The notes under the pieces: generated by a model
Seen by the model: the letters and a program-made list of their open reading frames with translations, nothing else
Told to the model about the DNA's origin: nothing
The model's database searches: none
NCBI GenBank assembly: GCA_021836035.1
Contig: JAKBJL010000004.1
Location: 67,841 to 131,840 of the forward strand
Reading direction: 5' to 3'
DNA length: 64,000 bases
Source of the DNA: a bacterium
GTDB taxonomy: Bacteria > Patescibacteriota > Microgenomatia > JAMCZE01
Part shown: positions 51,691 through 55,512 of the stretch, in pieces
Numbering within the stretch: the stretch's first letter is position 1
Layout of the letters: every line of letters begins with the position of its first letter
Program-made: the position numbers and the translations under genes

Positions 51691-54600
51691 ATGTACAAGC
51701 TAGACCCCGAACACGAGATAAAGGCGGTCGACCGTGTCCTGAATTGGACAGGTACCGGCACCTTCGAAAGTAACTACACTGACTCAACTTCTTATGATGC
51801 GAAATTCCAAGTAGCCATCGCTCTGATCAAAGATGGGCGGTACAAAAATCTCCATTTATTGGATAAAAGTTTTGCAACAGAACCCGCCATAAACTCTGAT
51901 CCCAAGATTAAGGAGATGAAAGACAGAATTCGGGTCGCCTTAATGGAAAAAGGAGTTATTGACCCGATTTCTCCGGAAGCTGCTGAAGCCAGTGCAGAGT
52001 TAACCCGTTTTATTGATCGAAATGAGATGTTAAGTGAGCTTCGCGATGTTTTGCCGATTGATGTTATGGGCGCAATTACCACCGTCGAGCGTTTCGAGCA
52101 TGCCACAGACGAGCAAATGCGCGAAAAATTACGGTCCTGGACCACTAAGGCTTTACTTCGTGATTACTTGGGAACTTTGTTAGTTCACCGACCCAAAGGC
52201 GAAATTGATTACCATGATTTGGTAACTCGTTCCCCAGAAAAAGTTTTCGAAAACCCGGATTCCGTCATTTACAACATTTATCGTCGTTACCTGGAAAGCA
52301 AGATTTTACGTACTTTCAACCCAGGTGAGGCCCAAGGCTTTACGGAGCTGGATACGGATATTGCCGACCAACCGGGAGGCGTGAAGAAACAAATGTTAAT
52401 TGAGATCAGACAAAAATTCCAGGCGGTGGCCGAACTTCCCATTTCCCCCGCTTTTAAAACTTCAGTCGAAAGCTGGACAGGCGAGGCATCAATATTCCCA
52501 AACTTTCGCCAAAAATATGTCGTTCGTGAATTTCAAAAAACTAAGCGGAAATTACTAAACGGGGATACCGGCGCTACTAAAACTGCTTGCGCCTACTTAG
52601 CCATGGAAGCAAATAGCGCTGATAAGGTTACTATTTTCGGTCCTCCAAGAGCTAGGAATACCTGGCCCAAAGAAGCCACCGTGGTCTTTAACAATGAGGC
52701 CCATCCGGATGTTTTTACCATAAGATCGGCCAAAGATTTAAAAGACTCGAGAGTAGTCAACGCCAAATATGTTTATCTGGGAAGCGCCTTAATGGGTAAA
52801 GCTTGGAAAGACGCTAATCTTTTCAGAACCATAAGGGAAAATCTTGTCATCAAACGCCAAACCGATGGCGTCATTATTGATGAAGCTGATGAGTTCCGCC
52901 ATAAAAAAACCGGTCGTAGCCAAGTGATAAGTGAACTGATAACCGAGATGGAAGCGGACCATGCCAAAAGGTCGAAAGAGAGAATGCCCATGGTGGCCCT
53001 GACAGCAACGCCGATTTCTTCATCGCTTGAAGATCTAGATATTCCTATGGCCCTTCTCTATCCGGAAAGATTTTGTTTACCGGGACGGGAAAACAACGGT
53101 AAATGCACCTTTAATGTCCAAATTTTAAAAGATCCGGAAATTGCTTATAGCCTCCTTTTTGGAGAACAACTAATCCTCCAATGGAGTTTGGAGGATCTTT
53201 TTGGAGAACGCATCCCCCAAGTAGACAACCGGATAGTGAATCTTGATTTAAGCCCTTTTGAACAAGTCTTAAATACTTGGATTTCAGAGTTACCTGCAGA
53301 ATCGCTGGTAAAAATTCGGTTGCTCCAAAGCCTGCTCTTAAACCCGGAGTTGGTTAAAAAAACTTGTCGTGAACGAGGTTTTGTTCCGGAAGGAAAGTAT
53401 TCTGACGTAGAAGCTTTAAGAAAACACCTCACTGAATTGCACACCACCTGGATAAGCTGGATGTTAAACAAAAACGGAGGTATCCCTGACGAACCTTTTA
53501 GCGCTGATTGGATAGCCAAAATCGGCGATACCGATTTTCTTTTACAGTGTTTCTTTGAACCGGGGTTAATCGAAGATGTAGAGACTCTGGCTCGCACTAC
53601 GCCGCAAATTGGAAAAGACTGGCAACACCGAGAAGCCGTTTCTACGAAATTCGCTCATATCCGCGACCTGATCAGAAAGCACGTCGCTCGCGACCAAGAT
53701 GGCAACTATCATGCCGATGCCAAAATTTTTATTGCTGTTCCTGGACACAAAAGAGGTATCACCCGCTGGTTAGAAGATCCCGAAACCACGGACAAAGACT
53801 TGCTCGACAATATCTGGAGCTTATATGAATATCTTCTGTCCGACTGGCTGCCCGGCTTACCCCGGGATAAAGCCGTTAATATAGACGGCTCGGTGCCGTT
53901 TAATAAACGCGATAAACACGCCGTTACCTGGGGTACTTCCGGAGAAAAAGATATCGTTGTGGTTTCTTCTATGGAGTCGGTCTATGAGAGCATGAACTGG
54001 AGTGTTCGCAAAACTCCGGATAACCAAAATATTAAGAAAGTAGTTTTGGTTCTAACTTCTTGGCCCTTTGGTTACGATGAAATGAAACAATTTCATGGGC
54101 GTTTTCCTCGTCCCGGCCAGGTTGTACCAATCGAAAGTGAAATATTACAAACCAATAATTCCATCGATGTGGGCATGGCTGATCTAGTAAAGATGAAGTA
54201 CCTTCTGACCCAAGTGGCTTTGTCTCGTATACAGTTGACGCCAGAAGAAAGGGAATTCTTCACTCGAGCTACATCCGCCAAGCGAATTTTATTAGAATAT
54301 CCGACGGTTGGAGAAACATTTGTCCGCGATACCATCAATCGTCTTAAGGGGGCCGGGGAAACCGAAATTGCGGAGAAACTAGGAAAGTTGATCAACGGAA
54401 AGAACGGTTTTGAAATCTTTGCTAAAGAATATTACGCTAACGGTTCTGATGAAAACAGGACAGTCGGTCTCAACTGGGAATTGATGAAGAACTTGGGTCT
54501 GGAAAGCCAGCCAGAGGATATTTTAGTAGTCGGCGCTGGTAGCTGCGGTTTTGCCCGCAAACTAATTAAAACCGATTACAAAGCTAAGATTGATAACTTG

Positions 54601-55512
54601 GACATTAATGGGGCGATCTTACGCCAGGCGAAAGAAAAATATCCAGAAATTGGGCAAGTAATTTCTGGTCGAGCCTCTGATACAAAGCTTGAGTCCTTGC
54701 ATTACGATCTGACGGAATGCGGTTTCATGTTGCCATGGACGAAACTTTACGAGTCCAAAAGCAGATTACCCAAGAATCCTCAGGAGATTGAACGGGTAAA
54801 AATTCTTTCAGAAATTAACCGAGTCACCAAAAACGGCGGCACTGTTTTGCTCTCTTTCCCTGAAAGTTCCTTAACACCCGAGTTATTTGCTAATTATGCA
54901 AATTGCCTTACCACCCATTTTGGTTTTTCTCTAGAAGAACCCTCAGGTAAGACATTTACGACTGATATCGATCCCAACAAACCGATTGGCTGGGTTTTAA
55001 AATTAAGAAAAGTAGACTCTCCTAATCTTTCTGGTATCGACGCTGGTCAGCTAGCCTTTACTAGCGATGAAGAAACAAAGATCAGCCGCCGAAAGAAAAG
55101 GAAAGAAGGTAAAACTCAAGTCGTCGTCTTGGATCCGCCACTATTTTCTGCCCGGCACTTTAGAGTCTTTAATCCATTAACCGGTCAGGAAACTATTTCC
55201 GATAGCCTTGCCGCTAGCCGTTGCGCTGATCAGCCAATAGTAGAAACGGCACCAGCGGAAGCTATTAAAGCGGCGATTAAAAATGACGACTTAACGACTC
55301 AAAGAGAGATGTGGGTGGATGCCCGTCGCCAGATCCAAAAGACTTTACGGAAAAATTATGAGGAAGCGGAGGAAATCCTGGCTGACATTTTTTCCCGAAA
55401 CGGACTTGCCGAACCAAATAATTGGCCAACGGAGGGATCGGAACGTGATAAGATTGACAAGACGATTAAAATTGAAATAGGGCGTTTATCTAGAATAAAA
55501 ATGCGGGGATGA
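51691..55512 (+). CDS. 1273-aa fusion of a divergent SNF2-family ATPase and a class-I SAM-dependent methyltransferase.
   Basis: SNF2 motifs: I LNGDTGATKT (degenerate Walker A at 52561), Ia TIFGPPRARNTW, II VIIDEADEFRHKKTGRS, III VALTATPISSSLEDL, IV-like VNIDGSVPFNKRDK, VI-like TSWPFGYDEMKQFHGRFPRPGQVV. MTase motifs: ILVVGAGSCGFARKL (motif I at ~54530), KIDNLDIN, LSEINRVTKNGGTVLLSFPE. No (D/N)PP(Y/F/W) motif was seen. Confidence 0.6.
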   Translation: MYKLDPEHEIKAVDRVLNWTGTGTFESNYTDSTSYDAKFQVAIALIKDGRYKNLHLLDKSFATEPAINSDPKIKEMKDRIRVALMEKGVIDPISPEAAEASAELTRFIDRNEMLSELRDVLPIDVMGAITTVERFEHATDEQMREKLRSWTTKALLRDYLGTLLVHRPKGEIDYHDLVTRSPEKVFENPDSVIYNIYRRYLESKILRTFNPGEAQGFTELDTDIADQPGGVKKQMLIEIRQKFQAVAELPISPAFKTSVESWTGEASIFPNFRQKYVVREFQKTKRKLLNGDTGATKTACAYLAMEANSADKVTIFGPPRARNTWPKEATVVFNNEAHPDVFTIRSAKDLKDSRVVNAKYVYLGSALMGKAWKDANLFRTIRENLVIKRQTDGVIIDEADEFRHKKTGRSQVISELITEMEADHAKRSKERMPMVALTATPISSSLEDLDIPMALLYPERFCLPGRENNGKCTFNVQILKDPEIAYSLLFGEQLILQWSLEDLFGERIPQVDNRIVNLDLSPFEQVLNTWISELPAESLVKIRLLQSLLLNPELVKKTCRERGFVPEGKYSDVEALRKHLTELHTTWISWMLNKNGGIPDEPFSADWIAKIGDTDFLLQCFFEPGLIEDVETLARTTPQIGKDWQHREAVSTKFAHIRDLIRKHVARDQDGNYHADAKIFIAVPGHKRGITRWLEDPETTDKDLLDNIWSLYEYLLSDWLPGLPRDKAVNIDGSVPFNKRDKHAVTWGTSGEKDIVVVSSMESVYESMNWSVRKTPDNQNIKKVVLVLTSWPFGYDEMKQFHGRFPRPGQVVPIESEILQTNNSIDVGMADLVKMKYLLTQVALSRIQLTPEEREFFTRATSAKRILLEYPTVGETFVRDTINRLKGAGETEIAEKLGKLINGKNGFEIFAKEYYANGSDENRTVGLNWELMKNLGLESQPEDILVVGAGSCGFARKLIKTDYKAKIDNLDINGAILRQAKEKYPEIGQVISGRASDTKLESLHYDLTECGFMLPWTKLYESKSRLPKNPQEIERVKILSEINRVTKNGGTVLLSFPESSLTPELFANYANCLTTHFGFSLEEPSGKTFTTDIDPNKPIGWVLKLRKVDSPNLSGIDAGQLAFTSDEETKISRRKKRKEGKTQVVVLDPPLFSARHFRVFNPLTGQETISDSLAASRCADQPIVETAPAEAIKAAIKNDDLTTQREMWVDARRQIQKTLRKNYEEAEEILADIFSRNGLAEPNNWPTEGSERDKIDKTIKIEIGRLSRIKMRG

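Follow-up and report, generated by a model that had tools for sequence, protein, structure and literature searches.

A SNF2-like ATPase-methyltransferase fusion and its previously undescribed operon in Microgenomates

The fusion gene and its operon

We analysed a 64,000-nucleotide stretch of a Microgenomatia genome (Patescibacteriota; GenBank assembly GCA_021836035.1, contig JAKBJL010000004.1, positions 67,841 to 131,840 of the forward strand), referred to as the window and used for all coordinates below, around a gene that fuses a SNF2-like ATPase to a class-I S-adenosylmethionine (SAM) methyltransferase. This gene is the fourth of five tightly packed genes on the same strand: three genes for mutually paralogous repeat proteins that share a C-terminal tail peptide precede it, and a gene for a small protein resembling the AAG/MPG glycosylases overlaps its end. 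We find the fusion gene at the core of an operon of Microgenomates, in the candidate phyla radiation (CPR, Patescibacteria), that has not been described before; a literature search of incomplete coverage found no description of a module that joins a SNF2 motor, an Rrp8-like methylase and an AAG-like protein. The genes of the window are as follows.

47202..48398, plus strand: tail-bearing repeat protein 1, 398 amino acids, 5 repeats; tail EANIQIEALLKD at 48360-48395
48400..50235, plus strand: tail-bearing repeat protein 2, 611 amino acids, 9 repeats; tail EANAQIEAILKD at 50197-50232
50239..51450, plus strand: tail-bearing repeat protein 3, 403 amino acids, 6 repeats; tail SANAQIEALLKD at 51412-51447
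51452..51659, plus strand: decayed, frameshifted fourth repeat gene, starting MTQEKFRPRHPMDYWTPQ; in a second frame, one repeat and then the tail TEANAQIEALPR and a stop
51691..55512, plus strand: helicase-methyltransferase fusion gene, an uninterrupted open reading frame (ORF) of 1273 amino acids
55509..55925, plus strand: small AAG/MPG-like protein, 138 amino acids; its start overlaps the stop of the fusion gene (ATGA)

Besides the window, we examined loci L001, L003 (the same locus as L008), L004, L005, L006, L007, L009, L010, L011 and L012, together with the gene table of the contig carrying fusion protein P0040. Wherever enough flanking sequence was available, in ten of ten loci (the window, L001, L003, L004, L005, L006, L009, L010, L011 and L012), the order was the same by BLAST or hidden Markov model (HMM): between one and four upstream proteins, then the fusion gene, then a small downstream homolog of the 138-residue protein. 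The P0040 contig has this layout too, known from its gene table alone, and the L007 contig stops before the position of the downstream gene.

Sequence comparison indicates that the fusion-protein family is real and conserved but rare, since about 40 full-length homologs were found, at 33-49% identity plus one at 27% and with the motif blocks kept, and the whole family amounts to ~41 protein clusters (90% identity) among 5.8 billion searched. Its named hosts are Daviesbacteria, Levyibacteriota, Gottesmanbacteria and 'Patescibacteria group', with one metagenome-assembled genome (MAG) labelled Gammaproteobacteria; apart from this MAG, the family was found only in Microgenomates/Patescibacteria. 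The label of the MAG, which carries locus L003 ('uncultured Gammaproteobacteria'), is probably wrong, because its fusion protein shares 47% identity with proteins of Microgenomates.

Flanking genes vary in most loci. Two loci, L005 (1-16000) and L010 (1186-13751), share a position, with the module between rnc (RNase III) and rpsP/trmD; in other loci it lies elsewhere. The two genomes are distantly related, their fusion proteins being 47% and 38% identical to that of the window, and the shared position is either ancestral and conserved or a hot spot of insertion. G+C content is 0.43-0.46 over the whole module, against 0.39-0.40 in its immediate flanks; this lies within the range found in other parts of the window and is thus not by itself evidence of foreign origin. 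Over the region of the repeat genes (48000-52000), AT skew is strongly positive, at 0.19.

An ATPase and a methyltransferase on one chain

A first-pass annotation, made from the sequence alone, had described the fusion gene as a SNF2-like ATPase with degenerate motifs joined to a methyltransferase of non-DNA type, and had passed over the conserved operon around it. The ORF and every string that it quoted are present at the expected residues. The domains and motifs of the protein are as follows.

51691..52440, plus strand: helical N-terminal domain, residues ~1-250, from modelled secondary structure and family-conserved columns
52453..54240, plus strand: SNF2-like superfamily 2 (SF2) ATPase core, residues ~255-850
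52504-52518, plus strand: Q-motif FRQKY
52561-52584, plus strand: motif I GDTGATKT, residues 291-298
52633-52668, plus strand: motif Ia TIFGPPRARNTW, residues 314-325
52879-52896, plus strand: motif II DEADEF, residues 397-402
52999-53013, plus strand: motif III LTATP (LTATPI is residues 437-442)
53881-53916, plus strand: IDGS..R block IDGSVPFNKRDK, residues 731-742
54088-54120, plus strand: motif VI QFHGRFPRPGQ, residues 800-810
54403..55020, plus strand: class-I SAM methyltransferase domain, residues ~905-1110
54526-54546, plus strand: methylase motif I VVGAGSC (VVGAGSCGF is residues 946-954)
54601-54603, plus strand: acidic end of beta-2, D971
54715-54738, plus strand: post-beta-4 motif ECGFMLPW; family consensus DCSFMLPW
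55138..55509, plus strand: C-terminal region, residues ~1150-1273, modelled as a short beta hairpin (FRVFNPLTGQ) and a helical bundle with a basic tail at the end

Two Pfam domains score above their cut-offs, the DEAD/DEAH-box helicase at residues 274-448 (E 2.3e-6; 27.9 bits, cut-off 26) and Methyltransf_11 at residues 946-1053 (E 1.4e-5; 26.1 bits, cut-off 21.2); because of these matches, and because the motif blocks are kept in about 40 homologs, the blocks are more than chance resemblances. NCBIfam and PDB sequence searches with the fusion protein detected the SAM-binding region alone. The N-terminal domain had no recognised relatives and no profile match in Pfam or the PDB profile search, and the C-terminal region has conserved residues F1157, P1162, R1213 and W1245 in the family alignment. 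Some members are larger: P0033 (2071 amino acids) has an N-terminal extension of ~750 amino acids (residues 1-~750), which we rejected as a fused upstream tail protein on finding no similarity to the tail proteins or to their 62-residue repeat, and P0035-P0040 carry acidic inserts of 100-200 amino acids between the methylase and the C-terminal domain.

The assignment of the N-terminal half to the SNF2 family is supported, mainly by fold: the window protein falls short of the gathering cut-off of the Pfam profile SNF2-rel_dom (E 0.035; 13.6 bits, cut-off 24.9), and PF00176 is among the precomputed matches of several homologs. Structure prediction of residues 1-900 from a 38-sequence alignment (mean predicted local distance difference test score, pLDDT, 83.2; predicted template-modelling score, pTM, 0.79) gave two RecA lobes with the helical insertions of the SNF2 family. 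Searched against the PDB, the family profile matched SNF2-type helicase chains only (SMARCA5, SsoRad54, DDM1 and vaccinia NPH-I; E 1e-3 to 6e-2); the top viral fold matches were SNF2/HepA helicases, and distant metagenomic sequence relatives are SNF2-rel_dom plus Helicase_C proteins. Identity to the eukaryotic and archaeal remodelers Ino80, CSB/ERCC6, SNF2H and Chd1 is 14-17%; the fusion reads GATKT where they read GLGKT and QxxGRxxRPG where SNF2 remodelers read QAxDRAHRIGQ, and the flanking domains differ.

We tabulated the motifs of 39 family members, taking invariant positions from family alignments. In motif I, K297 and T298 are invariant within the family pattern G-x-x-G-x-[T]-K-T; the residue before the lysine, position 296, is Thr in 33 members, Gly in four (GAGKT twice, GGGKT and GTGKT), Ala in one and Tyr in one. 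The window protein, with T296 in the place of Gly, thus departs from the canonical SNF2 Walker A sequence GxGK(T/S). The Gly-to-Thr change on which the first-pass annotation had remarked is therefore real, but it is a trait of the family and not a lesion of one gene. No intact GxGKT was found elsewhere in the fusion protein when we looked for an alternative P-loop, and the assignment to residues 291-298 is correct because the loop stands after a beta strand and before a helix and its Lys and Thr are invariant; the model places the strand at residues 286-291 and the helix from 297 with high confidence, which is the normal strand/P-loop/helix layout.

The remaining motifs are conserved as well. 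Gln274 of the Q-motif is retained (at least 90% of members), motif Ia is conserved as GPxxARNTW, and D397 and E398 of motif II, T438 and T440 of motif III, and D732 and R740 of the 'IDGS...R' block are invariant. Motif VI, which had been called degenerate, has invariant Q800, G803 and R804, and at least 90% of members keep R807 and P808; in the window protein it reads QxxGRxxRPG and not the DRAHRIGQ specific to SNF2. Judged by these residues the motif is an ordinary SF2 QxxGRxxR with both arginines, differing just from the wording of the SNF2 subfamily, and the description as degenerate falls. The window protein has the SF2 features throughout: DExx in motif II, (S/T)AT in motif III and two arginines in motif VI.

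The same substitutions had been taken to mean that the ATPase may be impaired; on that view it would be catalytically dead and give the methylase no more than a scaffold that binds nucleic acid. Thr ahead of the P-loop lysine in most members, the window protein included, and the SNF2-rel_dom score under the Pfam threshold are what this account has in its favour, and we consider it unlikely: K297, T298, D397, E398, Q800, G803 and R804 are invariant across 23-49% identity, with Q274 and R807 nearly so, the four members with Gly indicate that the two states interchange at position 296, and the P-loop topology is modelled with confidence. A residue other than Gly before the lysine is compatible with ATP hydrolysis, as in the Walker A sequence GDPGTAKS of MCM. 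Because sequences down to 23% identity keep every catalytic residue, and because Gly and Thr alternate at position 296, we conclude that the non-canonical P-loop probably belongs to an active ATPase; by the example of this family, Thr may be tolerated ahead of the catalytic lysine in an SF2 P-loop.

The C-terminal class-I SAM methyltransferase proposed by the first-pass annotation is borne out: in addition to the Methyltransf_11 match, the domain has a Rossmann-like fold, a Gly-rich motif I and an acidic beta-2 end, and NGGTVLLSFPE lies at residues 1048-1058. It likewise lacks the signature of DNA amino-methyltransferases, as had been noted, for no (D/N/S)PP(Y/F/W) motif was found after beta-4, where the protein reads ECGFMLPW, and Pfam gave no N6_Mtase or MethyltransfD12 match; with its normal class-I order, this rules out a canonical or circularly permuted DNA methylase. 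The nearest solved structure is nucleomethylin/Rrp8 (PDB 2zfu), at 16% identity, and the structural similarity to it is specific. At the level of sequence, there was no PF05148 (Methyltransf_8) match at E <= 1 and no Rrp8 chain among the PDB profile matches. Nucleomethylin/Rrp8 is an enzyme of 1-methyladenine (m1A) formation in rRNA and, unlike the fusion methylase, a stand-alone eukaryotic RNA enzyme.

This structural match brings up an RNA-directed role, in which the fusion would be a helicase-assisted base methylase of rRNA or tRNA, an Rrp8-like m1A writer that some CPR lineages would use in the maturation of ribosomes or tRNA. Such a role would also suit the position of the module between rnc and rpsP/trmD in L005 and L010, and a pseudouridine synthase gene lies near it on the P0040 contig. 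We nonetheless give it little credence: the motor is of the SNF2 type, whose members track on duplex DNA, and not of the DEAD-box type, its obligate partner has a DNA-glycosylase fold, and a sporadic distribution with variable gene content is unlike that of core translation factors. A DNA-directed role, set out below, is the reading that we prefer.

Partner proteins and their shared tail

The 138-residue protein of the window has no direct Pfam match; its ortholog in L006 matches Pur_DNA_glyco (E 9.7e-5). A profile of eight members of this small-protein family, searched against 1.84 billion representatives, retrieved 205 proteins at E <= 1e-3. Among 60 sampled relatives, 24 match Pur_DNA_glyco (PF02245; best E 3.6e-11), and four of the ten scanned singly score above the Pfam gathering score (P0063 at 35.3 bits, P0080, P0058 and P0091). 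The 60-sequence profile placed human AAG at the top of the PDB (3qi5, 1ewn and 1bnk; E ~1e-4), and an hhalign comparison of 13 window-type sequences with six Pfam-positive relatives gave a probability of 98.5% (E 1.9e-15, 118 columns). The homology is transitive, because a profile of window-type sequences only did not match human AAG significantly (E 8); by way of these intermediates, membership of the small protein in the AAG/MPG superfamily, as a divergent member, is well supported.

Linkage to the fusion gene extends far into this family. The gene for the Pfam-positive P0058 (L020) lies directly behind an incomplete ORF with a match to the fusion-protein profile (E 3.5e-73), and gene linkage therefore reaches distant AAG-like members. 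On the 2770-bp contig of P0080 (L019), two small ORFs (143+ and 129 amino acids), and no fusion fragment, stand before the gene of the Pfam-positive relative; linkage may thus not be universal in the wider AAG-like family, with this contig being too short to judge.

The position equivalent to Glu125 of AAG, in alignment-dependent counts over 164 members, is Glu in 55, Gln in 43 and Lys in 22. An aromatic residue equivalent to Tyr127 is present in 163 of the 164, on the same alignment, and the GxCV core is near-invariant. The window protein has Glu and Trp at the key positions (SLEAW); Gln takes the place of Glu in L001, L004 and L009. The E125Q variant of human AAG binds lesions and does not cut. 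Given that behaviour, and the retention of Glu in about a third of the family, many AAG-like members may bind a base without excising it, as readers and not glycosylases. The partner thus resembles AAG/MPG (PF02245) in profile-level homology, in its GxCV core and Tyr127-equivalent aromatic and, in the window, in its Glu125 equivalent; it differs in being much shorter and more divergent, in the replacement of Glu in about two thirds of members, and in mostly bearing a tail and standing in an operon with a methylase where AAG/MPG is a lone repair gene.

Upstream of the fusion gene, the three paralogous proteins of the window are arrays of a ~62-residue repeat, counted with a repeat HMM, with the consensus (G)YWTxExIxxEAxxxLxxxGxLTxxxLxxxGRxDLxxAIxxxYPGGxxxLKxKLGL. 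The repeat had no significant match in Pfam, NCBIfam, PADLOC, PHROGs or the PDB profile search; it may resemble the homing-endonuclease-associated repeat, a suspicion that the scans, with nothing significant, did not confirm. The apparent gap of 240 bp before the fusion gene is, as read from the sequence, the remnant of a fourth repeat gene: at 51452-51659 an N-terminus like that of gene 3 is followed, in another frame, by one repeat and the tail EANAQIEAL, with a DNA copy of the repeat at 51488-51522. This remnant suggests ongoing turnover or recombination of repeat cassettes.

The repeat proteins of the window end in a common tail, (E/S)AN(A/I)QIEA(L/I)LKD. Across loci the tail is an amphipathic peptide of ~12 residues, (S/T)P(E/D)EAN..L.RLLE (for example TEEANAQIEAILKD), that in most loci ends both the upstream proteins and the AAG-like protein. 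The upstream proteins themselves are mostly arrays of the ~62-residue repeat and fall into at least three unrelated families. Those of L005 (L005_4439, at 4439-6130) and L011 (L011_51, at 51-1253) form a separate non-repeat tail family, with 35% identity over 360 amino acids, and L010 has a single upstream protein of 2001 amino acids (1891-7896) that is not a repeat array; none of these non-repeat proteins had a Pfam match.

Identity over the 10-residue core of the tail is 0.80 within loci and 0.41 between them. In L005, five DNA copies coding for the tail vary synonymously while the peptide is identical, indicating selection on the peptide. The simplest reading is that the tail would be a docking peptide that gathers different proteins on one hub. 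The presence of one conserved tail on otherwise unrelated proteins of a locus could also mean that the fusion is a protein methyltransferase, with the tail-bearing proteins as substrates recognised by their C-terminal peptide and remodelled or loaded by the ATPase. Methyltransf_11-type enzymes do include protein methylases; SNF2 motors that act on proteins are without precedent, nucleobases are the target suggested by both the AAG-like partner and the nearest methylase fold, and the tail could equally be a docking signal, which makes this account very unlikely. We return to docking, within a DNA-directed role, below.

Candidate roles and known motor-methylase systems

We propose, with a probability of roughly 0.4, that the operon is a DNA-directed conflict system that would couple translocation, purine methylation and the reading or excision of the methylated base. 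In the mechanism that we envisage, the tail peptide would dock the variable proteins and the AAG-like protein on a common hub, most simply the fusion protein; the repeat proteins, as exchangeable adaptors, would choose or hold the DNA target; the SNF2 motor would track along the duplex and distort it, so that the attached methylase could reach a purine ring nitrogen; and the AAG-like protein would bind the methylated purine, and excise it where Glu is present. The conflict role would be defence, counter-defence or that of a toxin/immunity pair. The data establish the domain identities, the conservation of catalytic residues, the strict gene linkage and the sharing of the tail; DNA as substrate, the methylated atom, the docking and the biological role are inferred. 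An accessory or mobile character of the operon is consistent with this proposal: the family is rare, L003 has a conjugative setting, and AbiEii and MazE/Fic genes lie close by in L005 and L001.

Several observations weigh against it. Most loci lie among housekeeping genes and have no mobile-element or defence markers. PADLOC returned for the window just a weak, generic mad2 match in the methylase region (E 6e-6) and a non-significant PDC match, on which grounds a known defence system was dismissed. The methylase is generic at the sequence level, and the enzyme that it resembles most in structure works on RNA and not on DNA. The Glu125 equivalent is replaced in most AAG-like proteins, and that of the window is ~40 residues shorter than its orthologs in L001, L003, L004, L005, L009, L010 and L011, with no linker and no tail; no frameshifted remnant of a tail was found downstream of its gene, and the same 138-residue gene was called in other samples of the source organism (L021 and L022). 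Pfam and PDB profile searches revealed no DNA-binding homology in the repeat proteins, and the fusion protein is only a candidate for the hub to which the tails would dock.

A more specific form of the proposal, which we hold as doubtful, has the Rrp8-like methylase on the SNF2 motor write a Watson-Crick or minor-groove methylpurine (for example m1A, 3-methyladenine (m3A) or 7-methylguanine (m7G)) into DNA at targets chosen by interchangeable repeat adaptors, which would dock by their common C-terminal peptide; the AAG-like protein would then make abasic sites, to kill, or clear self DNA, as immunity. We know of no description of deliberate enzymatic 'damage' methylation of DNA paired with its own glycosylase. 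In concept the proposal recalls DarT-DarG and the R.PabI-type restriction glycosylases (PMC10273834), where a modifier of DNA bases is matched with an enzyme that takes out or recognises the base, modified or not. The analogy is one of mechanism only, for the proteins are unrelated in sequence and fold: DarT belongs to the ADP-ribosyltransferases, and R.PabI folds as a HALFPIPE.

Motors and methyltransferases share a single chain in other systems. The restriction enzymes of Type ISP/IIG (LlaGI/LlaBIII type) also join an SF2 motor to a methyltransferase; their Mrr/PD-(D/E)xK nuclease, gamma-class N6-adenine (N6A) methylase and target recognition domain (TRD) were not detected in the fusion with Pfam, NCBIfam or PADLOC, and its N-terminal domain is all-helical, in agreement with the first-pass view that the two are distinct. 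A dyad of SWI2/SNF2 helicase and adenine methylase, carried by phages and conjugative elements, has been proposed to protect incoming DNA from restriction (PMC5512222). Like this DarB-type dyad, the fusion unites a SNF2-clade motor and a SAM methyltransferase in one polypeptide, occurs once in a conjugative element and likely couples modification to translocation. That conjugative-element-like region is at L003 (CAZAZW010000002.1, 1-20100), where type IV secretion system (T4SS) genes flank the module on one side and relaxase, coupling-protein and serine-recombinase genes on the other; the region encodes T4SS pilins, a VirB4-like ATPase, a TraC-like protein, an M23 peptidase, a Replic_Relax relaxase, a TraG-like coupling protein and the serine recombinase.

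The operon could accordingly be an anti-restriction or establishment module of the DarB kind, whose motor-methylase would ride the DNA of an incoming element and modify it against the restriction of the recipient. In its favour, phages and conjugative elements are known to carry helicase-methylase dyads (PMC5512222), L003 provides the corresponding setting, and the N-lobe of the ATPase matches phrog_62, 'DNA helicase', in PHROGs (E 1.3e-14). The likeness ends at the methylase, which in DarB is an N6-adenine enzyme placed N-terminal to the helicase and here is Methyltransf_11/Rrp8-like, C-terminal and without DPPY. Only one of the ~11 loci examined, L003, is inside a recognisable element, and relatives of the fusion family were found neither in IMG/VR contigs, by a pattern-limited search, nor among INPHARED phages or PLSDB plasmids. 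DarB-type modules have no obligate AAG-like and tail-peptide partners, and a role modelled on them leaves both without a part to play; we therefore think such a role improbable. The DNA-directed conflict system proposed above gives each of these partners a place in its mechanism.

Motor-methylase fusions are a recurring weapon in the conflicts between bacteria and mobile elements, and to our knowledge all of those characterised use classical N6-adenine DNA methylases. The family described here puts a methylase of the rRNA-m1A type in the place of the N6-adenine type and links it strictly to AAG-like and variable tail-bearing proteins. Should DNA be the substrate of the methylase, the operon would write a damage-like methylpurine and bring its own reader or eraser, and would thus be a new route of immunity or of toxin/immunity pairing, and its repeat arrays could make it a source of programmable DNA-modifying tools; with RNA or protein as the substrate, it would be an uncharacterised, lineage-restricted module of moderate interest. 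In either case, the operon adds to the sparse knowledge of the accessory systems of CPR bacteria.

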